A stretch of 64,000 bases of DNA, taken from Candidatus Micrarchaeota archaeon (lineage in GTDB: Archaea > Micrarchaeota > Micrarchaeia > Anstonellales > Bilamarchaeaceae). Where the stretch lies: the NCBI GenBank assembly GCA_040757035.1, contig JBFLYM010000002.1, positions 4,300 through 68,299 of the forward strand, written 5' to 3'. Position 1 is the stretch's first letter. Each line of letters starts with the position of its first letter. A program made the translations under genes and the position numbers. Below, piece by piece: positions 3,261 to 55,380 of this stretch. The notes under the pieces were generated by a model that made no database searches, was not told where the DNA came from, and saw only the letters and a list, made by a program, of their open reading frames with translations.

Positions 3261-3358
3261 ATATACTCAACCAACTAAGTTTTTCCGATTTTGTTTTTTA
3301 GGTTTTATCTCGATTGGTTGAGTATATGCGATCCACGTTTTTTTAGTGGATCGGTATA
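3261..3358. repeat. 98-bp nested-hairpin intergenic repeat, copy A (family R1)
   Basis: Near-identical (1 mismatch) to the reverse complement of 12794-12891 and highly similar to 51748-51845. Stem 1 is atactcaaccaa/ttggttgagtat. Stem 2 is cgatccac/gtggatcg around a T-rich loop. It supplies the C-terminal 27 codons and stop of the upstream decarboxylase ORF. Confidence 0.9.
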
Positions 3359-4661
3359 ACCAACTTGCTTTTCTCTGTCCGGAAATTATTTTTTCGAACT
3401 CATCGTGTTTGCGCACTAATTCGTATTTTCCATTATTCACTAATATTTCCGCTGCTCTTGTTCTGAGATTGTAATTTGAGCTCATACTATATCCGTATGC
3501 GCCAGTAGTAAGCACGCACAATAAATCTCCTTCACTAAGTTTTGGCAAAGTTCGCGCGCGCGCAATGTAATCTCCGCTTTCGCATATTGGACCAACAACA
3601 TCATAAACATCATAAGTTTCCTGTTTTTTGTTTTTGGTTTCTGGTTTTCCATCCACAATTATGTGATGATAAGAATCGTACATAGTTGGACGCACCAAAA
3701 CATTAAAGCCTGCGTCTATTCCTGCAAATTTTTTATGCGGAGTTTGTTTGAGTGTATTTACGCGCGTGAGCAAAACAACCGCATCCGCAACTAAAAATCT
3801 TCCAGGTTCTATGCAAAAATACGGTTCGCCCAATTTATGCTCTTTAAGTTTTCGCACAAAAAGCCCGAGCACTTCATTCACATATTTGTCAAGATCGAAC
3901 TCATCTTCTGGTTTGTAAGGAACACCTAACCCGCCGCCTATATCTATAAACTCAAACTTTATTCCTGTTTTTTTCGCGATTTTGCCCGCTATGTCCATAA
4001 ATCGCGCAAGTGGTTGAATAAAATCCACTACATTTAGAATACCAGAACCTATATGCATATGAATTCCGAATTTTTTTACACCACCTATTGATTTGGCTCT
4101 TTCATAGAATTCAAGCGCATCGTGCTCCCATATCCCAAATTTTGAATCTGGACCAGCAGTAATGGTATGCGAATGATGGCCAGCGCCGATTTCTGGATTT
4201 ATTCTTGCGGAAATAAACTTGGATTTTACAATTTTAATTAATCGTTCAAGTGCGGAACGCGAATCCAGGTTCATGCGTATTTTTTTTTCAGAAAGCGCAC
4301 GCAATTCGTCATCTGTGACGTTTGTGCCAGTGAAAAGTATTTTTTCTTTTGCGAAACCTGCATCAAGCGCAGCGAGGACTTCGTTTAGAGAAAGCGCGTC
4401 AATATACGAACCTTCTGAATTAAGTATTTTGAGTATGTTAAGATTAGAATTTGCTTTCATTGCGTAATGAATCCGGACTTTGTTGATTTTGTATTTTTTT
4501 GCGAGCGCGTTTCTAAGCCGGATATAATTCTCTCGGATGCGGTTCTCGTTTATCACATAAAGTGGGGTGCGGAATTTTTTTGCGAGCAAAGCCGCGCTGA
4601 CACTCCCTATAAAAAGATTTCCATTTCTATTTACAATACCGGTTTTATAAAAATCTACCAT
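3267..4661 (-). CDS. lysA: PLP-dependent decarboxylase, diaminopimelate/ornithine/arginine decarboxylase fold (likely LysA)
   Basis: HYAMKAN PLP-lysine motif, TIM-barrel plus beta-sandwich organisation and CESGD motif. The C-terminal tail is encoded by repeat copy A. Confidence 0.7.
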   Translation of the reverse strand: MVDFYKTGIVNRNGNLFIGSVSAALLAKKFRTPLYVINENRIRENYIRLRNALAKKYKINKVRIHYAMKANSNLNILKILNSEGSYIDALSLNEVLAALDAGFAKEKILFTGTNVTDDELRALSEKKIRMNLDSRSALERLIKIVKSKFISARINPEIGAGHHSHTITAGPDSKFGIWEHDALEFYERAKSIGGVKKFGIHMHIGSGILNVVDFIQPLARFMDIAGKIAKKTGIKFEFIDIGGGLGVPYKPEDEFDLDKYVNEVLGLFVRKLKEHKLGEPYFCIEPGRFLVADAVVLLTRVNTLKQTPHKKFAGIDAGFNVLVRPTMYDSYHHIIVDGKPETKNKKQETYDVYDVVGPICESGDYIARARTLPKLSEGDLLCVLTTGAYGYSMSSNYNLRTRAAEILVNNGKYELVRKHDEFEKIISGQRKASWLYRSTKKTWIAYTQPIEIKPKKQNRKNLVG

Positions 4662-4703
4662 TTAAATCTCCTGCGGAATGCGAATCCAGGTTTATGCGTG
4701 TTT

Positions 4704-5966
4704 TTATTCCAATAACCACTTCCATAATGGAATTAGCTTTATTGCTTTGTTTTTCACCTTTAGTCCAGCTTCAAAATCTATGGTGATTATTGTTAAATTG
4801 TTGCACTTAAGTCTTTCACTTGCTGCAATAAGCGCATCAATTTCCCGTTCCTTCAGTTCATCTAGCAAGGATAGTGCAGTAACTTGAATTAGCTCTACGA
4901 TTTTTTGGCGTCTTTTCAAAACAAAGTCCACTTCCTTCTGGAAATAATCCTTCCAATAATAAACTTCCAATTCATGGTCCGTCTCTTTTTTCCGTTGAAG
5001 CTGAATAGCAACAATGTTTTCAAGAATTCGTCCTTTATTTTCTGAGAACTTGAAACCGATCAGATTAACAATTCCTGAGTCGATGCAATAAACCTTCTTG
5101 GGTGCAATAAACTGCTGTTTTAGCTTGAAGTCAAAACGTTCAACTTTAAAGACCAAAAAGCATTCTTCAAGATATGAAAACCACTTGGAAACAGTGGAAA
5201 CGTGTTTTACATCGAGCAGTTTTGCCAAAGAGCTATAAGTGAATTCTCCAGCAATGTTGGAAACAAGATATTTAGCCATTTGCTTTAGATTATCGCTTTT
5301 CTTTATTTTGTGTCTAACAACAATATCTTTGGTCAGAACGTCATCATATGTCCTTAGAAGTATCGTTTTGCCAAACTTGTAGGCCTCTGGCATGCCGCCG
5401 TTGATAAGGTAATCCTGAAGGTAATTGCCTATAATCGCCTTTTCCTGTGTAGTGTAGGCCTTTGAAAAGGTGAAATCCCGAAACGACAAATATTCTTTAA
5501 ATGAGAAGGGAAACAGCCTGATGGCTATGTGCCTGCCAGTGATGTGAGTGGCCAGTTCACTCGATAACAGACTGGAATTGCTGCCGGTGAGGATAACCCG
5601 CTTTGAACGCCTTAACCTATTGGCAAAAAGTTCCCAACCAACTATGTTCTGGATCTCATCCAAAACAATATAATCTATTTCCCTATAAAGCTCATAGAAG
5701 GCTTGCAAAACAGAGTCTAAATCGCTCGCCTTAAGCCCGAAAAGCCGCTCGTCGTCAAAGTTAACGTAGCCGAACTGGTGCCCTTGTTCAAGCAAATAGG
5801 AGAATATTGATTTACCGCACCGCCTAATCCCGGTAACTACAAGGATATTTGGGTAGTTGAGATAGGTCCGTGCTTCCGATAATCCTTCCCTCGGGATAAT
5901 ATGCTCGGTTTTTTGGATATTCTCCAATTCGAGCCTCTGCTCTTTGATAATTCCTTTTAAATCCAT
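4704..5966 (-). CDS. AAA+ ATPase, COG1373 type (AAA_14 plus DUF4143/PD-(D/E)xK-like C-terminal domain), paralog 1
   Basis: Walker A GIRRCGKS and Walker B VLDEIQ. C-terminal E..DFV..K motif. Ends ...LWKWLLE, as in the paralogs at 10086 and 21649. Confidence 0.75.
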   Translation of the reverse strand: MDLKGIIKEQRLELENIQKTEHIIPREGLSEARTYLNYPNILVVTGIRRCGKSIFSYLLEQGHQFGYVNFDDERLFGLKASDLDSVLQAFYELYREIDYIVLDEIQNIVGWELFANRLRRSKRVILTGSNSSLLSSELATHITGRHIAIRLFPFSFKEYLSFRDFTFSKAYTTQEKAIIGNYLQDYLINGGMPEAYKFGKTILLRTYDDVLTKDIVVRHKIKKSDNLKQMAKYLVSNIAGEFTYSSLAKLLDVKHVSTVSKWFSYLEECFLVFKVERFDFKLKQQFIAPKKVYCIDSGIVNLIGFKFSENKGRILENIVAIQLQRKKETDHELEVYYWKDYFQKEVDFVLKRRQKIVELIQVTALSLLDELKEREIDALIAASERLKCNNLTIITIDFEAGLKVKNKAIKLIPLWKWLLE

Positions 5967-6082
5967 GATAGATTATTAGAAAACAAATTTAAAAAGTTTT
6001 CTATTATGATAGATAACATTAAGTTGGACTAGTATATTTATAATTTGCGCTGTGATATTTCAGTGAGAGTTTGGTCGGGTAG

Positions 6083-6772
6083 TTGATAATGGTAACCGTA
6101 GCACATGTAGTATCAAAGCTTATAAGAATGGAGCCAATAATTGAGGACGCGCTTGCAAAGGATTTATTCAATTATTCAAAATTAGCCACGTATTTTCATT
6201 CTAAAGTTGAAAAAGAGATGAATAAACCGATCAAACTTTCAGCAATAATCATGGCAATAGCGCGCGCATCAGAAAAAATCAGGCAGGAATATCACAGGCA
6301 AGCGCATAAACTTTATTTTGCGCAAATAGAACTCAGCGTGCGTTCTGGTCTTGCGGAAATAACAATACAAAAATCCACATCATGTTTTAATAAAATCACT
6401 GAACTTTACAATATTGTTGATCTTTCTGCAGGGGATATTCTAAACATCAACTTGGGCGGAAGCGAAGTTTCAATAGTATATACTGCGCACTATATGAACG
6501 AATTCAAAAAAGCGCTTGAGGATGAGAATATAAAATTAGAGATTAGCGGTCTTGCTGAAATATCGGTGCGCTTTCCGAAAGATTGTTTATACGAACCTGG
6601 TTTTATTTACGCGATAACAAGACAATTTGCGTGGTATTCAATAAATATAGTTGAGATAATTTCTACTTTAAGCGAGCTTATATTAGTAATAAAAAATGAG
6701 GATACCACACGAGCATATAGCGCGCTTCAAGAACTTTTTTCGCAAAGTTCGCAACAGAGTTCGCAAAAATAA
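6083..6772 (+). CDS. hypothetical protein (possibly ACT-like regulatory domains)
   Basis: 229-aa ORF with good coding periodicity. No recognisable catalytic motif. Confidence 0.4.
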   Translation: MIMVTVAHVVSKLIRMEPIIEDALAKDLFNYSKLATYFHSKVEKEMNKPIKLSAIIMAIARASEKIRQEYHRQAHKLYFAQIELSVRSGLAEITIQKSTSCFNKITELYNIVDLSAGDILNINLGGSEVSIVYTAHYMNEFKKALEDENIKLEISGLAEISVRFPKDCLYEPGFIYAITRQFAWYSINIVEIISTLSELILVIKNEDTTRAYSALQELFSQSSQQSSQK

Positions 6773-11402: not shown

Positions 11403-12806
11403 TTATATCTTACTTTTCTTACTTTTGCCATGTTTTTTGTCATGTTTTTTCATCCATAAAATAAAATTTCCAAAGTCATGAGCCAATCCTTGGAATGGAT
11501 AAATCGTAACAATTTTTGCTATGAGTCTGCCAGTTGTTGCTTTTTTCAAAGGACGTACGATCTCTTTGGTGTTTGAAACAACGAAAAAACCAGTGATCAA
11601 TCTTGTCAATGCAATAATCAAAAAGAATATGTGAAAACTGAGAACGGCATTTCCCCCAAGAAACCCAAGAATCGCTCCGCCGAAAATTATTCCTGCAAAT
11701 GTTCCTGTACCACGAGAAAGAGAGAAATCTCCCATCGCGCTTACCCTTGAACGGACGGGTGTAATCTCGTAAAGGTAATTATATACCGTTGCGGATATAC
11801 CGCTCCAAATTATTCCGCTGTATGCTTCGGCAAGGAGAGATTGGACAAAATTGGAAACAAAAATCCAAGGCAATATCATTGTAAAGGAAAGCATACTTAC
11901 AGCGTTCAAGACCTTTTTAGTGCCGTATTTTTCTATCAATCTGCCCCAGTGTGGGGAAGCCAACGCGTAGCTTATTGTCCACAACGCTATTGTAAGTGAA
12001 AATTGGAAATAATCAAATTTAAGCATGTTGAACTTATATATTATTATGTACGGCGCAACCATATTGACTGAAAAGAAAACAAGAAAAATACAAACCAAAT
12101 ATTTCGTAAAATCGTTTCCGAGTTTGGATTTTGATTCTGCTTTTGGATTTGGGTCCCAATAAAGAGTAAGATAATAAGCACTAATGCTCCGAGTAACGAA
12201 TGCAATGAAAAAAAGCGTTCCGAAACCAAAGAATATGTTTGTTTTTGTGTAATCCAGAAAAATCCCTGCCAAAACAAGGGCAGCCAATCCTGCAAGATTC
12301 CACATTCTGTCCCTATAACCAAGCCAGCTCGCTCTTGTTTTTTCATGAACAACATCGCCTATAATTGCGAACCATGCTGGATTTACAACACCGCCAAAAA
12401 AATATATTGCAATTACAAGCAATATAAACGCAGTATTCGCAAAATCCTTAGAGAGTAAATTAAATTGGAACGCGAGCATCGCCACTCCGAACCATGTCAA
12501 AGCTTGTAGCGCAACTCCATAAATCAATATTTTTTTTCTTTCCCATCCAAAATCTGTGAAAAACGAGCCGATTTTCTGCGCAATGCCATCAAAAAGTGCA
12601 GGAAAAGAACCGAGCGCGGTTATGAAAAAAAGCGGAGCTTTGATTGCAATTGCAAACGGTGTCAGAAATACTGTGCCCGTATTCATCATTATTGCCCATA
12701 CTACTCCGTCTAGCGTGGAATAATGCATTGTTTTTTCTATTTTTTCTTTAACATTTTTTTCTTTAGCATTCATAATTATATCCTTGTCCAAATTATACCG
12801 ATCCAC
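11403..12806 (-). CDS. MFS transporter
   Basis: About 12 predicted TM helices and the GxxxDRxGRR-like loop (GYRDRMWN). Confidence 0.65.
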   Translation of the reverse strand: MDRYNLDKDIIMNAKEKNVKEKIEKTMHYSTLDGVVWAIMMNTGTVFLTPFAIAIKAPLFFITALGSFPALFDGIAQKIGSFFTDFGWERKKILIYGVALQALTWFGVAMLAFQFNLLSKDFANTAFILLVIAIYFFGGVVNPAWFAIIGDVVHEKTRASWLGYRDRMWNLAGLAALVLAGIFLDYTKTNIFFGFGTLFFIAFVTRSISAYYLTLYWDPNPKAESKSKLGNDFTKYLVCIFLVFFSVNMVAPYIIIYKFNMLKFDYFQFSLTIALWTISYALASPHWGRLIEKYGTKKVLNAVSMLSFTMILPWIFVSNFVQSLLAEAYSGIIWSGISATVYNYLYEITPVRSRVSAMGDFSLSRGTGTFAGIIFGGAILGFLGGNAVLSFHIFFLIIALTRLITGFFVVSNTKEIVRPLKKATTGRLIAKIVTIYPFQGLAHDFGNFILWMKKHDKKHGKSKKSKI

Positions 12807-12891
12807 TAAAAAAACGTGGATCGCATATACTCAACCAATCGAGATAAAACCTAAAAAACAAAACCGGAAAAACTTAGTTGGTTGAGTATAT
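12794..12891. repeat. 98-bp nested-hairpin repeat, copy B (family R1, opposite orientation to copy A)
   Basis: Reverse complement differs from 3261-3358 at one base. Confidence 0.9.
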
Positions 12892-21479: not shown

Positions 21480-21496
21480 TATACATATATGCGATC

Positions 21497-21516
21497 GATT
21501 TAGCGGCTCAGTAAAA
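21497..21516. repeat. 20-bp motif cgatttagcggctcagtaaa (left boundary of the two-ATPase block)
   Basis: Identical 20-mer at 24318-24337. A related 15-mer tcggcgctcagtaaa at 10036-10050 lies upstream of ATPase paralog 2. Confidence 0.7.
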
Positions 21517-21648: not shown

Positions 21649-22899
21649 TTATCTCGACATCCACTTCCAAGCTGGTTCAATTACTATTCTTTTCTTATCT
21701 ATTTCTAATTTATCTTCTTGATCGAGCGTTATTATTATTCCTTCTTTCAAATTGTATCTATCTAATGCTTCCAAAAGCCCGCCCAGCTCCCGATCTTTAT
21801 TCTCATCTCCAACCTTAAAACAAACCTGCACTGCGAAAATTATCTTGTTGGCATCTTTGACCAGGAAATCGCATTCGCGCTTGCCTTTAAAATAATAAAT
21901 ATTTCTATATTTTTTTCTGAGATGCACATAAACAAGGTTTTCCAATAGTCTTCCCTTATCTTCAGATAGCGAAGTTGAGTTTATTCTTGATAATCCGTTG
22001 TCTATGGAGTATAATTTTTTTGGATTTACTAATTGTTTTCTCATTGAATAATCAAATCGAGGAACCGTAAACGCAAGATAACTATCTTCAAAAAACGAAA
22101 TGAAAGAAATAACACTATTGACCGAACCCAGTTCGAATATTTTCTTAAGAGAATTGTAGCTAAATTCCTTTCCAAAATTTGATAGAATGTACAGTGCCAT
22201 TTCATTTAAGGTTTTCAAATTCCTTATTTTGTGCCTTATAGATATATCTCTTGCGACAATATCGCCCAGCAAATGCCTGAGAACCTCGGGGTTTCGTTCT
22301 TTTAGATATTCCGGAAAGCCGCCGTTCCTTAGGTATTCCTCAAACGAATCCACGTCCGGATTCTGTTTCGTAAATTCTAAAAATTCAATATAAGAGAAGG
22401 GGTATAATTCATAAGTTAAGTGTCTGCCTGTCAAACGCGTTCCCAATTCTTTGCTTAGTAATGAAGCGTTGGAACCAGTTATAACAACATATTTTTTCTT
22501 TTCCAGGAGAGATCTTATATAGAGTTCCCATTTGTCCACGCTCTGTATCTCATCAAAAAAATAACAATTCTGTTCCCCTAATTCTTCTTTAAAAGCCTCA
22601 TCCAATCGCTGGAAGTCATTCAGTCCGAAACCAAATGCACGTGGGTCGTCGAAGTCGAAATAATAAAACGACTGATATTTCTTCATTAATTGGCGCATTA
22701 GTGTACTCTTGCCGCATCGTCTTATCCCAGAGATAATTATCGCAAAATTGGTAATTACTGGCATCTCTTTTAATTTTTCCCGTTCTACTCCATAATCCCG
22801 TTGTTTGAACTCTTTATTTTGGGATCGTACAATTTCCTTTAGAACATCCTTTAATATCATGGATGTAGTTTCTACATCTCTCTTTATAAATGTTTTCAT
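21649..22899 (-). CDS. AAA+ ATPase, COG1373 type (AAA_14 + DUF4143), paralog 3
   Basis: GIRRCGKST and FFDEIQ motifs. C-terminal RECDFLVKD. Ends PAWKWMSR. Confidence 0.75.
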   Translation of the reverse strand: MKTFIKRDVETTSMILKDVLKEIVRSQNKEFKQRDYGVEREKLKEMPVITNFAIIISGIRRCGKSTLMRQLMKKYQSFYYFDFDDPRAFGFGLNDFQRLDEAFKEELGEQNCYFFDEIQSVDKWELYIRSLLEKKKYVVITGSNASLLSKELGTRLTGRHLTYELYPFSYIEFLEFTKQNPDVDSFEEYLRNGGFPEYLKERNPEVLRHLLGDIVARDISIRHKIRNLKTLNEMALYILSNFGKEFSYNSLKKIFELGSVNSVISFISFFEDSYLAFTVPRFDYSMRKQLVNPKKLYSIDNGLSRINSTSLSEDKGRLLENLVYVHLRKKYRNIYYFKGKRECDFLVKDANKIIFAVQVCFKVGDENKDRELGGLLEALDRYNLKEGIIITLDQEDKLEIDKKRIVIEPAWKWMSR

Positions 22900-22953
22900 T
22901 GATAGTGCACACTATTGCTCATTGGCAATGAAATGGTGCTTACTTAATAATAT

Positions 22954-22995
22954 TCTTTTCCGATGCGATTAACCGCGCATGCAAATATTCCATTT
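22954..22995. repeat. 42-bp intergenic copy of an internal segment of the CN-hydrolase gene
   Basis: Exact 42/42 identity with 24514-24555 (minus strand encodes NGIFACAVNRIGKE). Together the two copies flank the ATPase gene 23020-24102 in direct orientation. Confidence 0.9.
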
Positions 22996-23019: not shown

Positions 23020-24102
23020 CTACAAACCCTGATCGCGTCTCACAGCCGAAAACTTCAAGGCTTCTTTTATAATTGGGTCTCCGAGATTGTATTTTCCCCC
23101 TTTTTCTTCTATGAACCCATATTCCTGCAGCTGATCAAGAAGATTGGAAAGCCTGCTATCTGGAATTGGTTGACCTGATTTCGCTATGATAAAATTTTTT
23201 ATTTCGTTCCATGAAAGCGGCTCTTGGCTGAGAGACGCCAATATAAACAGATAGCGCTCCTTTGCCGCGATTCTCATGTTTAGGAACTCCTTAAGTTCAG
23301 CCGCTATAATCTTTGAGCTGTCTTTTAGTGTTTTTGAAAGAGCAACTTCATGGAACAATTCCTGCCTATAAAAACCATAATAAGTAAGCCAGCCAATCAC
23401 ACCGTCAAGCTTATCAACCGCTGTTTCAATTTCATTTTCTCGAATATTTATTTTCAACTGAGCAAAACCGGTCCTTAAAAACGTGATAGAATCCTTGCGT
23501 TCCAGCCTCCTTAAATTTATCACTTTTTTTGGCCGCCCATACAGTAGGCTCCCGATCTCGGAGCCTATAAACTTGTCCAATATGCCTATTTCGGAACCGG
23601 CAAGTATGATTTTTATTCTTTTTAGTCTATCGTAGATGAAAGCCAAGAAACGGTCAAATCCTGAGGGTTTTAGAAGCTGAACTTCGTCAATAAAAAGGCA
23701 GAAAAAATCATTTCTATCCTCCATCATCTTATCAATTCTTTTTGCCAACTCGCTCAGGCCCTTTTCTTCCCTAAAGCTTAATTTTACATAAATATCCAGG
23801 CCTTCAAGATAGGATTTCGCTTTCTCGTACATGCTTATACTTCTTAGAAAATCGTAAAATGTCCTTCCAATATGTTCATAAACTGCTTTCCTCCCCTTCG
23901 CAATTTCCCTAGAATCGATAAAAAGCTTTGGATGTTTGATTTCGCTGTAAACTACATTCATTAAACTAGTCTTGCCTGTTCTTCGCAATCCGCGCAACAC
24001 TATGAGCCGCTGCTGTTCGAGTACCCTTTCTATTTCCGCACATTCCTTATCGAAACCGAACAAATCTTTTCTGCTCGTCTTTGGTGTGATGTCAAAGTAC
24101 AT
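23020..24102 (-). CDS. archaeal ATPase (Arch_ATPase/COG1672-like, with C-terminal wHTH)
   Basis: LRGLRRTGKTSL Walker A and LFIDEVQ Walker B. Architecture differs from the COG1373 paralogs. Confidence 0.65.
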   Translation of the reverse strand: MYFDITPKTSRKDLFGFDKECAEIERVLEQQRLIVLRGLRRTGKTSLMNVVYSEIKHPKLFIDSREIAKGRKAVYEHIGRTFYDFLRSISMYEKAKSYLEGLDIYVKLSFREEKGLSELAKRIDKMMEDRNDFFCLFIDEVQLLKPSGFDRFLAFIYDRLKRIKIILAGSEIGILDKFIGSEIGSLLYGRPKKVINLRRLERKDSITFLRTGFAQLKINIRENEIETAVDKLDGVIGWLTYYGFYRQELFHEVALSKTLKDSSKIIAAELKEFLNMRIAAKERYLFILASLSQEPLSWNEIKNFIIAKSGQPIPDSRLSNLLDQLQEYGFIEEKGGKYNLGDPIIKEALKFSAVRRDQGL

Positions 24103-24317: not shown

Positions 24318-24337
24318 CTCGATTTAGCGGCTCAGTA
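24318..24337. repeat. 20-bp motif cgatttagcggctcagtaaa (right boundary of the two-ATPase block)
   Basis: See 21497-21516. Preceded by a local tandem gctaaatc x2. Confidence 0.7.
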
Positions 24338-25205
24338 AATGAGTATAACATTCAGATCTGCGATTATTGAGGAATTGCCAGCCGTTTCTTATTTTTTTAC
24401 ACATGGTTAAATCAACAACCGCAATAGAAGTGGTTTCGTTTCTACCAGCGCGCTTTATTATTTTGCCAAACGCATCGCATACGAACGAACCACCCCAAAA
24501 AGTTATTCTATCTTCTTTTCCGATGCGATTAACCGCGCATGCAAATATTCCATTTGCAATACAATGTCCGCGCATTACATTTTCCCACGCGCTTTTCCAA
24601 TTACCTTCGGTTTGTTTTATTCCTTTTATCGTACCTATTGCGGTGGGATAAAATATGATGTCCGCTTTCATAAGCGCGCTTATTCTTGCGGCTTCTGGAA
24701 ACCATTGGTCATAGCATATAAGTACGCCAATATTTCCATAATTTGTTTTGAACACTTTGAATTCTTCTCCGGGCGCAAAATAGTCCTTTTCCCAATAGCA
24801 TTCATCATATGGGATGTGAACTTTGCGGTATTTTCCTATTATGTTTCCGTTCTGGTCAAAAATTATAGAAGTGTTATATATTCTTTCGCCCGCTTTTTCG
24901 CATACCGAACCGCCTACGAGTATTATATTGTTATCACGCGCCGCTTTCGCAAGCGCATCTATAATTCTTTCAAAATTATCAGTGTATTCCGCGGTATATT
25001 TCGCGCGCTCATTTGTTTTTTTATATTGTGCGAAATATTTTGAAGCGAAAAGTTCAGGGAGACAAACAATGTTTGCGCCTTTTTTTGAGGCCATTGCGAT
25101 TTGTTTTACAGTACGCGCCAAATTTTCAGTAACGCTGTTGGACATACGCATTTGTATTAACCCTATCTTTGTCTTTCTTTTAGTTAACTCTAAGCGTTTG
25201 ATCAT
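24324..25205 (-). CDS. aguB: carbon-nitrogen hydrolase (N-carbamoylputrescine amidase-like)
   Basis: E-K-C triad context with PELF, RKVHIP and GVLICYDQWFPE. ORF opens at 25277 but the start is probably MIKRLELTK at 25205. Confidence 0.7.
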   Translation of the reverse strand: MIKRLELTKRKTKIGLIQMRMSNSVTENLARTVKQIAMASKKGANIVCLPELFASKYFAQYKKTNERAKYTAEYTDNFERIIDALAKAARDNNIILVGGSVCEKAGERIYNTSIIFDQNGNIIGKYRKVHIPYDECYWEKDYFAPGEEFKVFKTNYGNIGVLICYDQWFPEAARISALMKADIIFYPTAIGTIKGIKQTEGNWKSAWENVMRGHCIANGIFACAVNRIGKEDRITFWGGSFVCDAFGKIIKRAGRNETTSIAVVDLTMCKKIRNGWQFLNNRRSECYTHLLSR

Positions 25206-25380
25206 ACAAATCCGCATATTTTCTCTTAAGCTCCTCAAAAAATTATTTTCATAATAGTTTATAAGGCTTCCGCACATTCCCTTCCATTCCTTGCTGTAGT
25301 GAGCAACCCTATCCTCTTTTAAGATAGGATTATTTTTCTACTCCTTATCTGTTCTATAATGATTCTCAGTTTATCATTAC

Positions 25381-33788: not shown

Positions 33789-35213
33789 TTGCAAACGATC
33801 GGAAAAATTTGGTTGGTTGAGTATATGCCTGGAAAAATATTTGCAGTTGTTGGCAATCCAATACTCCATAGTAAAAGTCCAGAGATGTTCAATGCAGCAT
33901 TTAAGAAATTAAAGATAAACGCTATCTATATAAGAATTGCCGCATTTGATGCAGAAGAAGTGATGCGCACCGCAGATGATATTGGGCTATGTGGTTTAAA
34001 CATTACTTCGCCATTTAAGGAAGAATTAAAGAAAAAAATGCGCGTTTCGAATTCGTTAAACACACTCATAAATACAATCATTATAGATAAAAACGCAAGA
34101 GAAATCGATGCAATAAACTGTATAATTTGCAAAAATGATCCAAAATCAAAGTGTCCGAAGAAACAATTACTGGTTGGTTATAATACCGATGTTGCTGGCG
34201 TTATTGGTGCGCTCAAACATAATTCTTGCGATTTTGTTGGTAAAAAAATCATAGTGCTCGGTGCTGGAGGTGCGGCAAAGGCAGCGATATACGCACTTGT
34301 TTCTAAAAAAGCGGATGTAGTGGTGGTAAACCGCACATTCAAAAAGGCAAAAAAACTTGCGCAGCGATTTGGTTGCAGAGTCTCAAAATTTGATGAAATT
34401 GCGCAAGAACTCGAACATGCGAACATTCTAATCTCATGCGTTCCTACTGGCGAACGAATAATTCCAAAATCAGCGCTACGCAAAACGCTTAGTGTATTAG
34501 ATGCAAATTACTCAATAGATACAGCACTCAAAAAAGATGCAAAGAGCAATAATTGTAAAATAATTGATGGAAGAGAATGGTTACTTTTTCAGGCAATTCC
34601 GTGTTTTAAATATTTTATTGGTAAAAAAGCACCAGTCGCAGCGATGCGCAAAGTGCTTTACTCAAAAAAGAAAAGAAAAAAAAATATCGCTCTTATTGGT
34701 TTTATGGGTAGCGGAAAAACAGCGGTTGCTAAAGAACTCGCAACACTTAACGGAATGAAATCCGTAGATATAGACGCTAACATAGAAAAAAACATGAATA
34801 TGAAAATAGCGCAAATTTTTGAAGATATGGGAGAACGCGAATTTAGAAAAATAGAAAACGCGGAATTAAAAAAGGCGCTTGAATCCGAAAACGCAATAAT
34901 TTCCTGCGGAGGCGGGTTAGTGTTAGATCCGCGCAATGTAGACATGCTAAAAAGAGATTGCACTGTTTTTTGGTTATGGGCAGATATAACAACCATAATG
35001 GAAAGAATAAGTAAAGATGATTCAAGACCATTGATCAGAACTAAAAACAAAGGCGATCTCAAAACCAAAATCGAAATCGCCAAAAAAATATTAGAGCAGC
35101 GGTTATTTGTTTACGCAAACGCTTGCGATGCTCTAATAAATACAGTTGGAAAAAAACCAAAAGAAATTGCCGCAAGGATAGATTATGAAATTAACGAAAT
35201 TAATAAAGCCTAG
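33789..35213 (+). CDS. aroE: bifunctional shikimate dehydrogenase / P-loop shikimate kinase (AroE-AroK fusion)
   Basis: N-terminal AVVGNPILHSKSP with a Rossmann GAGGAAKA (AroE). C-terminal IALIGFMGSGKTAVAKELA...ISCGGG (bacterial-type shikimate kinase I). Probable start MPGKIF at 33825. Confidence 0.8.
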   Translation: MQTIGKIWLVEYMPGKIFAVVGNPILHSKSPEMFNAAFKKLKINAIYIRIAAFDAEEVMRTADDIGLCGLNITSPFKEELKKKMRVSNSLNTLINTIIIDKNAREIDAINCIICKNDPKSKCPKKQLLVGYNTDVAGVIGALKHNSCDFVGKKIIVLGAGGAAKAAIYALVSKKADVVVVNRTFKKAKKLAQRFGCRVSKFDEIAQELEHANILISCVPTGERIIPKSALRKTLSVLDANYSIDTALKKDAKSNNCKIIDGREWLLFQAIPCFKYFIGKKAPVAAMRKVLYSKKKRKKNIALIGFMGSGKTAVAKELATLNGMKSVDIDANIEKNMNMKIAQIFEDMGEREFRKIENAELKKALESENAIISCGGGLVLDPRNVDMLKRDCTVFWLWADITTIMERISKDDSRPLIRTKNKGDLKTKIEIAKKILEQRLFVYANACDALINTVGKKPKEIAARIDYEINEINKA

Positions 35214-45837: not shown

Positions 45838-46644
45838 TTAAACTTCATTTTTAATTATCGGTTTCGGAACAATAGTACCAAGTGATGAACGTATATCTTC
45901 AGTATGTGCTGTTTGTACGGCTTCTATATTAGCACGTATTATGGCCTCTATATCATCGTTATTCAATCCATTTTTCTTCATATCCCTAATCAATTCAACA
46001 AAATCCGCTGCATTCTCTTTTTTCTTTTCTTTGTTTTCCTCGCTTTCATTTGCAGTTATAATGTCTATAACTTTGGAATTATCTTTCTCTTCTATTATTT
46101 TATTTACTATATTATAAGCTTGATCGAGCATAGAAGGACTAAGCTTTTGAAGAAGATTTTGCATAATAATATTTTGCGTGTTTTTAATAATTCGATCAAC
46201 TTCCATTCTGATTCTATCGAATTCGCGTTCGTAGCCGTGGTCGATTGCGAAATCTTGCAGTTGCTTCATTGTACGAATATTATTCCAATTATCTAGGAGG
46301 GATTGTTGTTTTTCAGGGCTTGCTATTTTATAGATCCAACGCTTAGCAAGGTCAACCCCAATAGATTCGGAAATATCATTTATTACCTTGTCAGTTAATT
46401 TAATTGTTTTTAAATAAGAAACTAATTCTTTAGATACCTCGTCCTTTTCCTTTTTTGATAGTAGAGATATGCATAATTTATTATATAAATCTTTTATATT
46501 ATTTTTTTGATCATCGGTCAGAGTTTTTTCTTTCTGTATAATATTTATAATGTTTTCAACGTCACTCTTTACGCATTCCTGAGGAAATTGATCTTGAATC
46601 CGCTTCTTACTGTTATCAGCTCCAACGCTTATTAGACTGTTCAT
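45838..46644 (-). CDS. hypothetical protein
   Basis: 268 aa, helical and charged. Its 3'-proximal 85 bp (45971-46053) is duplicated at 47655-47739. Confidence 0.4.
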   Translation of the reverse strand: MNSLISVGADNSKKRIQDQFPQECVKSDVENIINIIQKEKTLTDDQKNNIKDLYNKLCISLLSKKEKDEVSKELVSYLKTIKLTDKVINDISESIGVDLAKRWIYKIASPEKQQSLLDNWNNIRTMKQLQDFAIDHGYEREFDRIRMEVDRIIKNTQNIIMQNLLQKLSPSMLDQAYNIVNKIIEEKDNSKVIDIITANESEENKEKKKENAADFVELIRDMKKNGLNNDDIEAIIRANIEAVQTAHTEDIRSSLGTIVPKPIIKNEV

Positions 46645-46695: not shown

Positions 46696-47634
46696 TTACT
46701 TCGTTAGTTTTGCTAGACACGTATTAGAACCTATAATTGGGAGAGCGTATTCAGAATTTTTAGATTGAGAAACGATAATTAGAACAAATTGCATAGAACT
46801 ATTGCAATCACGTTTTGCTAACTCATAATCTTGTTCATCACATACGATGATATATTTTGAATTATTTATATCTGTTATAATTACTTTTGGTAATTTTTTT
46901 ATAGGTAGGTAAGGGTCGCGAGTTCCATCTTCACATGTTCTTCCATCTAAATAAATTATTGTACCCTCAATTTTCTTCTCTTTGTAATTAGGTTGAAATA
47001 TCTCAATCATTTCAGGTGAAACAGCAACAGTGTACCATATAGGTCCAAGTTTAAATGCATAAAATTCACATTTCAGATTATCTTTACCATAAGTTGGAAA
47101 AACATTATAACCAAAATTCACGTGCGCCCACCCCTTAGGGACATAATATAACATAGGACACACAATCCGAGAAGGTAAGTTTAGAAACCAACCATTAGTC
47201 TTTTTAAAATCTACCTGCTGGCCCCTGGTTGCCTTAGGATCATAATTAAAGCGTTGTATATTTGGATTAAGTTTCATCTCTTTTTCAGCATTTTCTAGCT
47301 CTGAAAATGGAATTGTCTGTAGTTCTTTTGCACACGCAAGCGGAATTTTAAACATACCTAGAATTTTGTCAACTGGAGTCGTATTTGTTTTTTGATTTTG
47401 TGGTAGAACTTGCTCAATTCCAGGTTTTTTGTTGTTATCTAGGGGGTTTTTAGTTTGAGTATTATACAGTGCGGGTCCAGATAATGGACTTATTAAAGAT
47501 GCCACCAATAAGGAACTTGCTAACTTTTTTGCTATTTCTTTTTTTCTTTGTATTTTCGGAGGTGTAATCTTCTCCACTTTTTTTTCATGTCCTACCATAA
47601 TCTTATTTATGAGACAAAAAATATATAAAACCAT
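46696..47634 (-). CDS. secreted hypothetical protein
   Basis: Signal-peptide-like KKLASSLLVASLISPLSGPALY and several Cys in the mature part. Confidence 0.4.
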   Translation of the reverse strand: MVLYIFCLINKIMVGHEKKVEKITPPKIQRKKEIAKKLASSLLVASLISPLSGPALYNTQTKNPLDNNKKPGIEQVLPQNQKTNTTPVDKILGMFKIPLACAKELQTIPFSELENAEKEMKLNPNIQRFNYDPKATRGQQVDFKKTNGWFLNLPSRIVCPMLYYVPKGWAHVNFGYNVFPTYGKDNLKCEFYAFKLGPIWYTVAVSPEMIEIFQPNYKEKKIEGTIIYLDGRTCEDGTRDPYLPIKKLPKVIITDINNSKYIIVCDEQDYELAKRDCNSSMQFVLIIVSQSKNSEYALPIIGSNTCLAKLTK

Positions 47635-47739
47635 AGGTTCGTTCGTAACAGTTCGTTTTTCTTCATATCCTTAATCAATTCAACAAAATCCGCTGCATTC
47701 TCTTTTTTCTTTTCTTTGTTTTCGTCGCTTTCATTTGCA

Positions 47740-47787
47740 TTCTGGCAATTGTGGCATAGTAGCTGTTTGCCGGTATTTGCCAATATT
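47740..47787. repeat. 48-bp direct repeat, left copy, flanking the AlbA_2 gene
   Basis: ttctggcaattgtggcatagtagctgtttgccggtatttgccaatatt matches 49120-49168 with 3 mismatches. Internally palindromic (tggcaa/ttgcca, ggca/tgcc). Confidence 0.85.
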
Positions 47788-47815: not shown

Positions 47816-49120
47816 ATGAAGCTAACCGAATCTCAGCATGCTGAATTTAAGGAAAGTCTTGCTAATCTTGATGCTATTGTAATTAGTGTGGTAGCCTTTG
47901 CGAATAACGGTGGCGGTAAAATATATATTGGAATAAAGGATGATGGAACAATAAAGGGTATTGATGTCGGAAAAAATACAATTGAAAATCTGGCTGCTGT
48001 AATCACAAAAAATACTGAGACAGCAATACTGCCAAGGATTTATATTGAAGGAATTGAAAAAAAAATCATAATAGTCGTTGAAGTTGAAGAAAGCTCGGCC
48101 AAACCTCATTTTTATCGTAAAATTGCATATAAAAGGGTTGGAAAATCCAATATTCAAATGGACATTTTAGAAATAAAACAAATGATCTTAGATCAATCTG
48201 AACGTAGTTTTGATGAAAGCCTTTTTGAGTTTGATTTATCAGAAATTAATACCTCTGTTTTCAATCGGTTCCTGGAAAAATGTAAGCAGAGCGGTAGATT
48301 AAACGTCAAAGAAGATGCGAGTTTAGAAGATCATATTGAAAAGTTGGGCGCATTAAAAGAAAGAAAGGTAAAATTAGGATTTTTACTAATGTTTGCTCAA
48401 AACCCAACCCATTTTCTTCCTCATTTTGGGGTAAAACTTGCAAAAATATCTTCACAAACATTTTCAATTGGTTCGCTTGAACGCAGTATATTTTATACCG
48501 AATCAATATTCAGAGTGATAGATGAGATAGTATTTGAAATAGTCAAAGAACTACCTAAAAGAGTGTACTTAGATGGCTCCAAACGTATAGAAGAACCTAT
48601 AATTCCAACTTCAGCAATTAGAGAATTTGTAGCCAATGCTTTGGTTCATTGTGATTATAGGATTGCATCATCTATTTCGATTTTGCTTACCCCAACTTGT
48701 TTAGAAATATCCAACCCAGGCAGATTGATGGGTTTGAAAATCCAGGATCTTTACAAAAAACACCGCTCAATACTTCGTAATCCATTTCTTGCCAGATTAA
48801 TGTTCCTTTCAGGAGATATTGAAGAATGGGGATCTGGAATTGAAAATGCAAATATAGCTGTACTAAAATCTGGCCTAAGTTTGCCACAATTCAATGTTAA
48901 TTCTGGTTTTTTCAGCGTACGAATAAATTTTGGTACTTCTCAAATTTCTGCTTCGGATAAAATTATCAAAATGCTCAAAGCAGGTCCATTAAGTAGTAAA
49001 CAAATAGCCAAAAAACTAGATATTGCAGACCGAACCGTGAGGGCGGAATTAAAGAAACTTGTGGATTTGGAAGCAATAAAAAAACAGCGAAAAGGTCGCA
49101 AAATTACCTATAAAATTTGA
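47816..49120 (+). CDS. AlbA_2 (Schlafen-like) + HATPase_c_4 + C-terminal HTH protein (putative DNA-binding/regulatory ATP-binding protein)
   Basis: N-terminal ESQHAEFKESL...AFANNGGGKIYIGIKDDGTIKGIDVG matches the AlbA_2 domain signature. C-terminal KQIAKKLDIADRTVRAELKKL is an HTH. Confidence 0.65.
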   Translation: MKLTESQHAEFKESLANLDAIVISVVAFANNGGGKIYIGIKDDGTIKGIDVGKNTIENLAAVITKNTETAILPRIYIEGIEKKIIIVVEVEESSAKPHFYRKIAYKRVGKSNIQMDILEIKQMILDQSERSFDESLFEFDLSEINTSVFNRFLEKCKQSGRLNVKEDASLEDHIEKLGALKERKVKLGFLLMFAQNPTHFLPHFGVKLAKISSQTFSIGSLERSIFYTESIFRVIDEIVFEIVKELPKRVYLDGSKRIEEPIIPTSAIREFVANALVHCDYRIASSISILLTPTCLEISNPGRLMGLKIQDLYKKHRSILRNPFLARLMFLSGDIEEWGSGIENANIAVLKSGLSLPQFNVNSGFFSVRINFGTSQISASDKIIKMLKAGPLSSKQIAKKLDIADRTVRAELKKLVDLEAIKKQRKGRKITYKI

Positions 49121-49168
49121 TTCTGGCAATTGTGGCATAATAGTTGTTTGCCAGTATTTGCCAATATT
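49120..49168. repeat. 48-bp direct repeat, right copy
   Basis: See 47740-47787. Begins at the stop codon of the 47816-49120 gene. Confidence 0.85.
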
Positions 49169-49173
49169 CAGAT

Positions 49174-50418
49174 TTATGAGAGCCGTTTTTTATAATCAGA
49201 ATATCCAAATTTTCGCACTATGCGCAAGTTTTCTTTACCGTTTAGTTTATGCGGATTGTAAATAGCAATTGAAGGATGCCTTACACCATTAAACATTGTT
49301 GTTTTCACCATGGAGTAATGCGCCATATCCAGAAAAACCAGCTTATCTCCAACACCGAGAGGTTTTGCAAACGAATAATCCCCGATTATATCTCCAGCAA
49401 GGCAGGTCACTCCAGTTAATTGATAGGTATATTTTTGTTCGCCTGGTTTTCCAGCCCCAATAATTTCTGGGCGATAGGGCATCGCAAGCACATCAGGCAT
49501 ATGAGCTTCTGCAGAAGTGTCCAATATCGCAATTTTCATTTTGCTTTTGATTATTACATCTAAAACGCTTGCTACGAGCACACCCGCATTAAGCGCAACC
49601 GCTTCGCCTGGTTCAAGATAAACTTGCACAGAATATTTTTTCTTAAAATCGTTTATTGTTTTGCATAACAAATCAACATCGTAATCATTCCTTGTGATAT
49701 GATGACCGCCACCAAAATTTATCCATTTCATTTCAGAAATATAATTTTTGTACAATTTTTCAAACGATTTCAAAACGCGCACAAGTACATCTGAATTTTG
49801 TTCGCATAACGCATGAAAATGCAGTCCGTCTATTTTTGAAGCAATCTCGTCCAAATCCTCGCATTCGAGGTCTTCTGGTCGCACACCGAGCCTTGAACCT
49901 GGAACGCATGGATTGTAAAGCCTTGTTTTTATCTCAGAATATCCTGGATTTACCCTGAGTCCAACTTCTATTTTTTTTCCCAATTTTTTTTCAGATTCGG
50001 TTATCGCATCGCGATATTTTTTCCATTGCGAAATTGAGTTGAAAATTATGCAATTAGAATAGCGAATTACTTCATCCATGTCGCGTTTAGAATAAGCCGG
50101 CGCAAATGTATGAACTTCTTTTCCAAATTCTTCTTTGCCGAGTCGCGCTTCAATCGCTCCGCTTGCGCACACGCCATCAAGATATTTTTTTATTAATGGA
50201 AAAGTGGAATGCATCGCAAATGCTTTCAGAGCAAGAAAAATTTTTGTATTTGTACGCTTCCGAACCGAACTCAAAATTTTCAAATTCTTTTTCAGCAAAT
50301 CTTCATTCACGATAAAGCATGGCGTTTCTATTTTATCTGTAATTTTTTTCGGGAAATTTTCTAATTCCCTGATATTGAACTTATCTGCGTTCATAGTTTC
50401 ATTCATAGTTTTATTCAT
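49174..50418 (-). CDS. nspC: carboxynorspermidine/carboxyspermidine decarboxylase (PLP-dependent)
   Basis: FLALKAFAM PLP-lysine motif, GGG..HHITRNDYD and the overall fold II decarboxylase layout of NspC. Confidence 0.75.
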   Translation of the reverse strand: MNKTMNETMNADKFNIRELENFPKKITDKIETPCFIVNEDLLKKNLKILSSVRKRTNTKIFLALKAFAMHSTFPLIKKYLDGVCASGAIEARLGKEEFGKEVHTFAPAYSKRDMDEVIRYSNCIIFNSISQWKKYRDAITESEKKLGKKIEVGLRVNPGYSEIKTRLYNPCVPGSRLGVRPEDLECEDLDEIASKIDGLHFHALCEQNSDVLVRVLKSFEKLYKNYISEMKWINFGGGHHITRNDYDVDLLCKTINDFKKKYSVQVYLEPGEAVALNAGVLVASVLDVIIKSKMKIAILDTSAEAHMPDVLAMPYRPEIIGAGKPGEQKYTYQLTGVTCLAGDIIGDYSFAKPLGVGDKLVFLDMAHYSMVKTTMFNGVRHPSIAIYNPHKLNGKENLRIVRKFGYSDYKKRLS

Positions 50419-51641
50419 TACAGAAGTTTTCCTTTGAACTCAATTTGCTGCCATTTGAGTCCATATTTATTAAGCGCTTCCATGAACATATCAGGATCCA
50501 ATTGTTCAACATTAAACACGCCTGCTCCTTTCACTTTCCATACGCCTTTGAGTACTAACATCGCACCTATCATTGCAGGAACTCCTGTAGTATAAGAGAC
50601 CGCTTGCGCCTGAACTTCTTTGTATGCTTCTGCGTGATCGCACATATTATAGATATACGTTTTCTTTTTTTTGCCGTCTTTGGTAATACCGTCAAATATA
50701 CATCCTATTACCGTTTTGCCAGTGTAGTTCACGCCAAGCGAAGCCGGATCAGGAAGTAGAGCCTTCAAGAATTTCAGCGGTACTATTTTTTTACCTTCAA
50801 AATCAATTTCATCTATTCGCGTCATCCCGATATTCTGAAGTACTCGCAGATGCGTTAAATAATTTTCAGAGAACGTCATCCAAAATCGTATGCGCTTCAA
50901 TCCGCGTATGTTTTTTATAAGCGATTCCAGTTCTTCATGATAAAGGAGATAACTTTCTTTTGGACCAACTACTGGATAATCGAACGAAAAATGCACGCTT
51001 TTAGGATTTAGTATTGGCGGTGTTTCAATCCATTTGCCGTTTTCCCAATGCTTTACTATTTGTGTGACTTCGCGAATATTTATTTCGGGATTAAAATTCG
51101 TTGCAAATGGGTGGCCATGACTACCGGCGTTGCAATCTAAAATATCTATGTTCGTTATCTCTTTATAGATATGCTTTTGCGCGTATGCACAAAAAACATT
51201 TGAAACACCTGGATCAAAACCACAACCAAGCACTGCAATTATTCCTCTTTTTTTGAATTTTTCTTGGTACGCCCATTGCCAACTATACTCAAAATGCGCT
51301 TCATCAGGTGGCTCATAATTTGCCGTGTCCAGATAGTGCACTCCTGTTTCAAGGCATGCGTCCATTATAGTTAAATCTTGGTAAGGAAGCGCGACGTTGA
51401 TTACTATGTCCGGTTTGAATTTATTTATAAGTTTGATTAATTCGGGAACTTTATCAGCGTCAACTTGCGCGGTTTTTATTTTTCTACCTGTATTTTTTTC
51501 TATTTCGGCAGCTATTTTATCGCATTTTTCCACAGTTCTGCTGGCGATGCAGATTTCGGTAAAAACTTCAGGAACCTGCACGCATTTTTTTGCAACAACA
51601 TTTCCAACTCCGCCTGCACCAATAATTAATACTCTTCCCAT
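50418..51641 (-). CDS. carboxynorspermidine synthase/dehydrogenase (saccharopine dehydrogenase family)
   Basis: MGRVLIIGAGGVGNVVAKK NAD(P) fold and saccharopine-DH C-terminal domain. Overlaps the nspC start. Confidence 0.75.
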   Translation of the reverse strand: MGRVLIIGAGGVGNVVAKKCVQVPEVFTEICIASRTVEKCDKIAAEIEKNTGRKIKTAQVDADKVPELIKLINKFKPDIVINVALPYQDLTIMDACLETGVHYLDTANYEPPDEAHFEYSWQWAYQEKFKKRGIIAVLGCGFDPGVSNVFCAYAQKHIYKEITNIDILDCNAGSHGHPFATNFNPEINIREVTQIVKHWENGKWIETPPILNPKSVHFSFDYPVVGPKESYLLYHEELESLIKNIRGLKRIRFWMTFSENYLTHLRVLQNIGMTRIDEIDFEGKKIVPLKFLKALLPDPASLGVNYTGKTVIGCIFDGITKDGKKKKTYIYNMCDHAEAYKEVQAQAVSYTTGVPAMIGAMLVLKGVWKVKGAGVFNVEQLDPDMFMEALNKYGLKWQQIEFKGKLL

Positions 51642-54031: not shown

Positions 54032-54101
54032 TATCCAATGCTTTTTTGATAAATCTCGAACGGAAAATTTTTCGTCGCGAAGAGAGATATGGAGAAAAAA
54101 T

Positions 54102-55342: not shown

Positions 55343-55380
55343 ATCAAAATATATACCGTATTTATTTTTAATTCTTTCTT

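Follow-up and report, generated by a model that had tools for sequence, protein, structure and literature searches.

A 34-bp segment from within the diaminopimelate decarboxylase gene lysA of a Candidatus Micrarchaeota archaeon recurs in the short gap between lysA and the upstream gene ATPase1, which encodes an ATPase of the COG1373 family and of the defence candidate PDC-S01. Both copies lie in a stretch of 64,000 nucleotides (hereafter the window; positions 4,300 to 68,299 of contig JBFLYM010000002.1, assembly GCA_040757035.1) from a 77.7-kb contig of a Micrarchaeota (DPANN) metagenome-assembled genome with a G+C content of 35.6%. We consider it probable (roughly 0.7) that illegitimate recombination at the insertion of an ATPase1 cassette left the upstream copy behind as a junction scar, and that the copy is not a selected element. 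A scar of this sort is commonplace in itself; its setting here is unusual and informative. The features of the locus, in window coordinates, are:

3267-4661, minus strand: lysA, intact as judged from Pfam, homologues and C-terminal comparison
4251-4284, minus strand: parent copy within the native coding region of lysA, from the last base of K126 through A137 (K K I R M N L D S R S A)
4662-4668, minus strand: GATTTAA in front of the ATG, all that is left of the original sequence upstream of lysA (blastn of the related locus L002)
4668-4672, minus strand: Shine-Dalgarno-like AGGAG, 7-11 nt before the lysA ATG (last base of the derived copy, three further bases and first native base)
4672-4705, minus strand: derived copy (c'), a 34-bp lysA fragment between the ATPase1 stop and the lysA ribosome-binding site, with three transitions relative to the parent
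4704-5966, minus strand: ATPase1 (AAA_14 + DUF4143, COG1373), 420 aa, PADLOC candidate PDC-S01, assigned by Pfam, PADLOC and homologues
5967-6023, minus strand: cassette-borne promoter region with the BRE/TATA (B recognition element and TATA box) sequence GAAAACTTTTTAAATTT about 20-35 nt before the ATPase1 ATG, shared with homologous cassettes elsewhere
6089-6772, plus strand: conserved gene of 227 aa, divergent from lysA in all relatives (tblastn 68-85% identity in the related loci L002-L005), the native left border

The two copies of the lysA segment

A pattern search of the window with the 33-mer GCGGAACGCGAATCCAGGTTCATGCGTATTTTT returned exactly two sites, one without mismatches at 4252-4284 and one with three mismatches at 4673-4705. 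One further matching base on the low-coordinate side of both copies extends them to the 34-bp pair 4251-4284 and 4672-4705, with 31 of 34 positions identical. A preliminary description of the locus had given the first site correctly and the second one base too low, at 4672-4704. The copies are in direct orientation, and the 388 bp between them enclose the 5' end of lysA, namely the leader and the first 125 codons. The gap between lysA and ATPase1 measures 42 bp (4662-4703). At one end the upstream copy shares two bases with the ATPase1 stop codon (4704-4706), and its other end lies 11 nt before the lysA ATG. The geometry described earlier, with a copy in the 42-bp gap that touches the ATPase stop just upstream of lysA, thus agrees with the coordinates of the open reading frames (ORFs).

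The similarity of the two copies exceeds what is expected by chance. In a blastn comparison of the whole 64 kb against itself, the pair had an E-value of 2e-4 and was the twelfth-strongest self-match. A second match to the 33-mer was found in none of 100 dinucleotide shuffles. Furthermore, 120 third-order Markov simulations of the 64-kb window produced no direct pair reaching the observed 44.1 bits (maximum 42.1 bits), and no direct pair at most 1 kb apart that scored above 36.2 bits. These results substantiate the earlier claim that the 30/33 similarity is non-random. The arrangement is also independent of any one assembler, since a Logan contig (L001, from SRR32167786) is 100% identical to window positions 3331-6117. 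Repeat lengths of 21, 33 and 99 resemble the k values used by assemblers, and a k-mer assembly artefact was therefore considered; it was rejected because the copies are imperfect and the second assembler is concordant. Thus, a chance similarity or an assembly artefact has a negligible probability. The low G+C content of the genome and the A-rich left end of the repeat would favour chance, but the repeat core CCTGGATTCGC is rich in G+C and neither the shuffles nor the simulations reproduced the score, while a 91% imperfect repeat, recovered identically by a second assembler, is unlike a k-mer collapse.

The internal copy encodes K126-A137 (KKIRMNLDSRSA) within GIRINIDSHSALERL, a coding stretch that is conserved in all lysA relatives, which identifies the internal copy as native and the intergenic copy as its derivative. 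Read in the lysA frame, c' encodes K-T-R-I-N-L-D-S-H-S-A. It shares with the resident lysA a lineage-specific CTG codon (L132, where the relatives have I or V), which indicates that it was copied from the lysA of its own lineage. At the position of M130, c' retains ATA (I), as against ATG in the present resident gene, and all relatives have I or V here. At the position of R135 it retains CAT for H, the residue found in most relatives, as compared to CGT in the resident gene. The third substitution, ATA to ACA at I128, is private to c'. Judged from these substitutions, the copy appears not to be brand new, or to come from a slightly different (older or other) lysA allele. A chimeric lysA with a 5' part from another source was also considered, and was rejected on the basis of the segment-wise identity to 11 relatives, which showed no discontinuity.

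ATPase1 as an insertion and the present leader of lysA

In four related loci (L002-L005; lysA 70-77% identical), the gene order is the same in every case: an aminotransferase gene, a gene of 225-237 aa on the opposite strand, an ORF of 79-87 aa and lysA. Of these, the window contains lysA and the orthologue of the 225-237-aa gene (6089-6772), but no trace of the small ORF was found, and ATPase1 occupies its place. The DNA homology to the closest relative (L002, blastn) is lost past a shared TATA-like sequence, ATTATAAATATA, at 6033-6044 and is regained only at 4668, which shows that the promoter region of lysA in the relatives is also gone from the window. Relative to these four genomes, ATPase1 is an insertion, and about 0.4 kb was deleted in the event, which makes it a replacement.

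The borders of the inserted unit were delimited by comparison with homologous cassettes in other contexts. The DNA homology starts at window positions 6006-6007 (contigs L006 and L007) or 6023 (L075 and L076), 41-57 nt upstream of the ATG, which includes the GAAARCTTTTTAAA promoter, and it stops at the stop codon and no further. The left insertion junction lies between 6023 and 6032. The C-terminus of ATPase1 (...PLWKWLLE*) is the natural end of the family as seen in homologues. The inserted unit is thus a minimal promoter-plus-ORF cassette of about 1.3 kb, from about 6023/6032 to 4704. At its other border, homology to the cassettes ends at the stop codon (4704-4714) and native homology resumes from 4668, so that c' is located on the breakpoint of the rearrangement. 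The 34-bp copy plus three bases account almost exactly for the interval from the cassette end to the native sequence (4705-4669), which places c' at the insertion junction.

The Logan contigs L001 (3331-6117) and L152 (6088-9312), both from SRR32167786, break and overlap at 6088-6117, a 30-mer that is unique in the window. This indicates that the assembly graph of that sample branches about 60 nt away from the left cassette junction, possibly reflecting strain variation at the locus.

ATPase1 matched AAA_14 and DUF4143 in Pfam with E-values of 3e-31 and 2e-26, respectively, and the PADLOC model PDLC04787 over its full length with an E-value of 1.3e-104. Its homologues are strikingly conserved, with 85, 82, 81, 80 and 78% identity and, in Pacearchaeota and Nanoarchaeota, 60-65% identity, and almost all are 417-427 aa long. 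The homologue with 85% identity (GCA_041694885.1) is on a contig and in a context other than that of the lysA gene of the same genome, which is 72% identical and retains the small ORF. ATPase1 is thus better conserved than the two housekeeping neighbours and not syntenic with them, which indicates horizontal movement. The homologous cassettes in L006, L007, L009, L011 and L075 have unrelated flanks, and no lysA-like or c'-like fragments were detected at 60 other ATPase loci. All four COG1373 paralogues of the window matched PDC-S01 models in PADLOC (E-values down to 1e-111), and their AAA+ ATPase plus DUF4143 PD-(D/E)XK architecture is as described for this candidate (PMC3424549, PMC12988326). 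PDC-S01 has been described as an ATPase fused to a PD-(D/E)XK domain that is unvalidated as a defence system (PMC12988326; PMC3424549), and as the fourth most common prokaryotic defence candidate, enriched in archaea (PMC12988326). The literature treats it as an abundant candidate with cross-domain transfers.

The insertion also changed the sequence in front of lysA. Most genes in the window have a TATA-like box about 25-35 nt before the ATG, in a leaderless layout, whereas lysA has a Shine-Dalgarno sequence instead. This sequence is missing from the relatives; the closest of them has TTAGTTGATTTAAATG at the corresponding position. The observation in the preliminary description that the intergenic copy contains no obvious TATA box was correct. 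A poor ATAAA at -34 to -30 of lysA, made by one of the three substitutions (G-to-A), was the only candidate. No terminator was found in the 42-bp gap, and the promoter and terminator counts at 4200-6200 were at the level of shuffled sequences in a sigma-70 scan, which is not designed for archaeal promoters. The RNA fold of 4640-4730 (minus strand) was not more stable than shuffles (z = +1.2), and c' contains no hairpin. An Rfam scan of the window at gathering thresholds gave no match and a tRNA scan gave none either. A lysine riboswitch or other cis-regulatory RNA was rejected on the basis of the Rfam result and the z-score, and because the element is absent from the relatives.

Since its own promoter has been lost, lysA would be read through from the cassette promoter (about 5985-6007). 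Probably it is co-transcribed with ATPase1 and translated from a leadered bicistronic mRNA by means of the Shine-Dalgarno sequence built at the junction. As to whether the intergenic copy serves as the lysA promoter or lysA is transcribed from within the ATPase gene, a choice that had been left open, the Shine-Dalgarno sequence and the lack of a good TATA box, of a terminator and of a stable structure favour read-through from the ATPase promoter. The copy makes up most of the 42-bp spacer that separates the two genes, and with the junction bases it would supply the AGGAG ribosome-binding site.

Origin of the intergenic copy

In the scenario that we propose, a single-gene cassette with its own archaeal promoter and a PDC-S01-type gene inserted by illegitimate, microhomology-type recombination and replaced the small ORF and the promoter upstream of lysA. 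The 3' end of the cassette would have been joined to 34 bp of lysA codons 126-137, and this patch, 3-4 bases further on, to the last 7 native bases of the leader. The patch would thereby record a joint between the cassette stop codon and lysA codon 126. At the left junction of the copy, the cassette side GGAATAA matches the lysA sequence TGAAAAA at 5/7 positions, in an A-rich and imperfect alignment of GGAATAAAAAC (cassette plus copy) with TGAAAAAAAAT (lysA). Because WKWLLE* is the natural end of the family, the copy can be seen to start at the T|AA of the stop codon. A template was available nearby in the same genome, with the parent 388 bp away in direct orientation.

Such a joint could have arisen along two routes, of which we slightly favour the former. 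An insertion-deletion may have fused the cassette to a 5'-truncated lysA, either in a donor strain or in one chromosome copy, and an intact lysA may then have taken part in an exchange that relied on homology on the side of the 227-aa gene and was illegitimate just upstream of lysA. This exchange, of the type known as homology-facilitated illegitimate recombination (HFIR), would have healed lysA and generated the present gene order, with 34 bp of the old allele kept. Alternatively, serial template switches in one repair or replication event may have copied the short stretch 388 bp away as filler DNA. The copy resembles filler DNA and HFIR scars in that a short stretch of a nearby template is located exactly on an insertion-deletion breakpoint, with native sequence kept on one side and foreign DNA trapped. 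HFIR combines a homologous end with an illegitimate one (PMC3240628), and has been proposed to explain arrays of displaced gene fragments next to incoming conflict modules at type VI secretion system and Rhs loci in Vibrio (PMC5361080). However, the known cases are bacterial and mostly experimental or toxin loci, whereas ours is in a DPANN archaeon with a mechanism deduced from the outcome. It also differs in that the insert is a minimal promoter-plus-ORF cassette that ends at the stop codon, and in that the scar is now the leader of a gene in an essential pathway.

The preliminary description had interpreted the pair as a long target-site duplication (TSD), in which staggered cleavage at the insertion of the ATPase gene duplicated 33 bp of lysA. 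A TSD sits at both ends of an insert. Here, both copies are 3' of ATPase1, 388 bp apart and around the 5' end of lysA, and the 5' flank of ATPase1 (5967-6088) contains nothing lysA-like beyond the level of shuffles, so that the claim does not hold for this pair. Nor did the insertion produce a simple duplication, since the small ORF was deleted with it. The cassette lacks a transposase and terminal inverted repeats, and near-identical copies of it were not found. Several observations are nevertheless in favour of a TSD: long host-derived direct repeats flank many PDC-S01 genes, the copy abuts the 3' end of the cassette as it does at those genes, the duplicated sequence is pre-existing host sequence (conserved lysA coding sequence), and duplications of 8-514 bp are known for IS1549/IS1634 (PMC2266710). 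Weighing these points, we regard a TSD as very unlikely. Somewhat less remote, yet still unlikely, is a local hop, by which the cassette first inserted inside lysA (c-[ATPase]-c') and then moved 0.4 kb upstream with the 3' copy of the repeat, with lysA restored. This would account both for the contact of c' with the stop codon, similar to stop-side repeats elsewhere, and for its resemblance to an older lysA allele, and the same pattern is seen where 43 bp from inside the CN-hydrolase gene recur, interleaved, 24 bp past the stop codon of the ATPase gene at 23020-24102. On the other hand, the hop presupposes an active means of mobilisation, of which no direct sign was seen, and a viable intermediate with a disrupted lysA. 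Moreover, the window paralogues are only 21-37% identical, and an identical ATPase protein on 23 contigs is always at one locus.

We also considered that the copy is a selected regulatory element of lysA, such as a duplicated promoter or operator, or a binding site that acts as a decoy or is paired with the internal site, which lies 421 bp (about 40 helical turns) away. One substitution turns CATGAAC into CATAAAC at -35 to -29, which is the usual position of the TATA box in this genome, and lysA has no native promoter. The match is poor in comparison with real promoters in the window, however, and the element is absent from all four relatives, whose upstream region differs. Copies in direct repeat cannot base-pair in one transcript, and no significant structure was predicted. 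Since the location exactly on the insertion junction can be explained without selection, a regulatory origin is in our view improbable by a wide margin. The two routes described above and the local hop alike make the copy a scar of the arrival of the cassette.

Several points weigh against the interpretation as a scar of illegitimate recombination or limit its detail. The data fit either route, in one event or in two, and also the local hop. This is also the only locus of about 90 in which the partner of the copy at the stop codon is downstream rather than upstream, which makes it an atypical outcome. The polarity of the three substitutions between c' and the parent is based on only 8-11 relatives. 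The nearest empty-site allele in the searched collections has 77% amino-acid identity, which limits the view of the right junction and of any microhomology there. Finally, the co-transcription of lysA and ATPase1 is deduced from sequence alone, and a weak promoter may be provided by AATAAAAACACGCATAAAC (ATAAA at -34 to -30). Look-ups of exact proteins for strain variants or an empty site gave no record for lysA; the ATPase1 protein and its 227-aa neighbour were recovered exclusively from Logan contigs that belong to the same sample and do not differ from the window.

Signs of a dedicated mobility system were not found. The cassette ends have no terminal inverted repeats, and the window contains no near-identical copies of the cassette, its COG1373 paralogues being only 21-37% identical. 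Pfam scans of 40 ORFs (about 0.2-36.5 kb and 44.6-56 kb) revealed no transposase and no tyrosine or serine recombinase. As a test for recent transposition, we examined an identical ATPase1-family protein present on 23 contigs, which was at the same locus with the same neighbours every time. IS1549/IS1634 produce long and variable target duplications (8-514 bp) by a mechanism that is not known (PMC2266710). The wider set of PDC-S01 loci resembles them in having host repeats of variable length on both sides of a gene-sized insert. However, those elements have DDE transposases and inverted ends, whereas the cassette has neither and is not multi-copy, and the lysA copies do not flank the insert. 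A similarity to attL/attR of integrative elements is that a fragment of a host gene is duplicated beside acquired DNA while the gene remains intact; the differences are that the scanned ORFs include no recombinase, that the repeats differ between loci and that the "element" between the copies is only the 5' end of lysA. An integrase att site was thus rejected, as there is no recombinase among the 40 scanned ORFs and no core sequence that is reused at homologous cassettes. Integron cassettes are likewise promoter-proximal single-ORF units with the stop codon as their 3' boundary, and one paralogue of the window, ATPase4, has an imperfect palindrome of about 54 bp on both sides that is conserved between genomes. 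Unlike attC, c' is not palindromic and has no RYYYAAC/GTTRRRY cores, there is no IntI and no array with a common site, and the cassettes carry their own promoters. Based on these sequence features and the lack of a recombinase in the scanned ORFs, integron attC and Xer/dif readings were ruled out.

Repeats at other ATPase genes and neighbouring elements

We examined whether direct repeats of at least 20 bp tightly flank the ATPase genes at 55 genome loci and 77 metagenome loci with ATPase1 relatives, plus the loci retrieved earlier (150 fetched loci). Such repeats were found at 16 of 90 COG1373 genes, as compared to 3 of the 211 remaining ORFs with 250 aa or more at the same loci (odds ratio 15, Fisher p = 6e-7). 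With looser distances, the numbers were 17/77 and 5/154, and three of the latter five were defence-like accessory genes. The repeated host sequence is of variable length (20-170 bp) and differs from locus to locus, and about half of the repeats overlap a neighbouring ORF. For example, the repeat consists of the last codons and stop of a convergent host gene in L011, of the first 11 codons of a host gene in L020 and of a host N-terminus in L050. In 6 of 19 flanked genes, the stop-side copy starts within -4 to +3 nt of the stop codon, four to five times as often as expected from an even spread over the permitted window of positions. Thus, duplicated host sequence is genuinely associated with PDC-S01 cassettes, and the lysA copy shares their style of 3' junction. 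The census upholds the link between duplicated neighbour sequence and COG1373-type ATPase loci that had been proposed earlier. The accompanying idea that these ATPase genes insert with long (30-50 bp) target duplications finds partial support in this association, but a specificity for the ATPase has not emerged, as a SLFN/AlbA2 gene and the ORF at 46696-47634 also carry such repeats. The corresponding repeats in the window are:

21495-21515 / 24319-24339: 21-bp exact repeat, a piece of a CN-hydrolase gene (last four codons plus stop)
22953-22995 / 24513-24555: 43-bp exact repeat, an internal segment of the CN-hydrolase gene
45971-46054 / 47656-47739: 84-bp repeat around an ORF of no assigned family
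47739-47787 / 49120-49168: 49-bp repeat around the SLFN/AlbA2 gene
54101-54154 / 55380-55433: 54-bp repeat around ATPase4

The closest analogue of the lysA case is found between ilvN and the CN-hydrolase gene. Two ATPase genes (PDC-S01, 21649-22899; PDC-S27-like, 23020-24102) are enclosed by the 21-bp repeat, and the 43-bp repeat is interleaved with it, 24 bp past the stop of the second ATPase gene, in the order A B A' B'. Nothing is left of the intervening 173 bp, and a search around ATPase2 for the 3' end of the CN-hydrolase gene gave no remnant above the level of shuffles. The synteny of the closest relative differs, and the search for an empty site has therefore no bearing on this case.

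ATPase4 (54128-55342), a divergent COG1373/PDC-S01 gene, is of a different kind. Its 54-bp repeat includes the last nine codons (GFVQKTDQK*) and forms a two-stem hairpin with z-scores from -4.7 to -7.3. The hairpin is 86-89% identical to sequences in another Micrarchaeota genome (L006, 2095-2147 / 3383-3435) that flank a 58%-identical homologue beside folD. It is thus far better conserved than the gene, in another genome and context, which assigns it to the cassette, and it looks like a cassette-borne recombination or binding site. No match to the hairpin was found in IMG/VR. The lysA pair had been counted as the third case in the window of neighbour-gene sequence duplicated beside a COG1373-type gene; this is accurate for the lysA copy, which is host-derived, but not for the repeats of ATPase4, which are a cassette hairpin and not a piece of a neighbouring gene.

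Read as a scar, the lysA copy would document the uptake of a candidate immunity gene by a streamlined DPANN genome at the cost of a small gene and of the lysA promoter, with lysA apparently rewired to the incoming promoter through a ribosome-binding site made at the junction. The more novel lead is the architecture of PDC-S01 cassettes bracketed by repeats and terminated by the stop codon across archaea and bacteria: about one fifth of the sampled PDC-S01 genes have direct repeats close by on both sides, in many cases copied from adjacent host genes and in many cases starting at the stop codon. In the literature, we found no description of PDC-S01 as a discrete cassette or with host-derived flanking repeats. 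This raises the question of whether these 'guilt-by-embedding' candidates are discrete mobile cassettes, moved by host repair, by HFIR between strains or by their own nuclease, and the answer would bear on how defence-island statistics are read. A speculative extension, to which we assign a low probability, is that PDC-S01/COG1373 genes are, also or instead of being defence genes, minimal autonomous mobile cassettes that duplicate 20-170 bp of host sequence by staggered or microhomology-guided breaks. They would consist of a promoter and one ORF, with the stop codon as their right end. The lysA fragment would in that case be a transduced former target copy left from a previous insertion into lysA, and ATPase4-type genes with the 54-bp hairpin would be a second, site-bearing variety.

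Further unusual repeats were observed in the window. Between a small gene and the carboxynorspermidine decarboxylase gene there are two independent repeat-bracketed insertions, one with a 312-aa ORF and one with the SLFN/AlbA2-HATPase_c_4-HTH gene. Their 84-bp and 49-bp duplicated segments meet at a single base, 47739, as though both events had used one fixed nick site. Genes of the polyamine pathway are scattered over the window, each of them beside an inserted cassette (49174-51641, 55469-56026, 24324-25277). They encode a pyruvoyl arginine decarboxylase, a CN hydrolase similar to N-carbamoylputrescine amidase, a saccharopine-dehydrogenase-like protein and an Orn/DAP/Arg-decarboxylase-like protein, and the latter two are probably carboxynorspermidine dehydrogenase and decarboxylase.

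A 99-nt element similar to miniature inverted-repeat transposable elements is present at 3261-3359 (plus strand), 12793-12891 (minus) and 51748-51845 (minus) with 94-99% identity, and in partial copies at 33798-33826 and 62784-62820. Besides the terminal inverted repeats ATATACTCAACCAA...TTGGTTGAGTATAT, it contains a second hairpin, GATCCAC...GTGGATC, and the DNA fold has a z-score of -6. The copy at 3261-3359 is located on the end of lysA and displaces the stop codon, such that the protein, which ends with ...KKASWL* in the relatives, has 35 more codons here. The copy at 12793-12891 overlaps the called start of a major facilitator superfamily gene (11403-12806). These first two copies are inverted and enclose 9.4 kb with lysA and two ATPase cassettes.

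Two contigs outside the window displayed more complex patterns around PDC-S01 genes. In L075, a metagenome contig with the 82%-identical homologue of ATPase1, two tandem PDC-S01 genes have the same 89-bp sequence 3-4 nt past each stop codon (2284-2372 / 4267-4355, 98% identical), beginning with the hairpin CATTTCCTTAGGAAATG, and there is a further pair at 2643-2684 / 4576-4617. The similarity runs back into the shared WKW..E* codons, which suggests that recombination may have occurred at the conserved 3' ends of the paralogues. In L021, a Nanoarchaeota contig of 5.5 kb, dense nested and interleaved direct repeats of 21-160 bp, with spacings of 1.2-3.7 kb, surround a PDC-S01 gene and a 383-aa ORF, and the contig looks like an insertion hotspot built by the same process.

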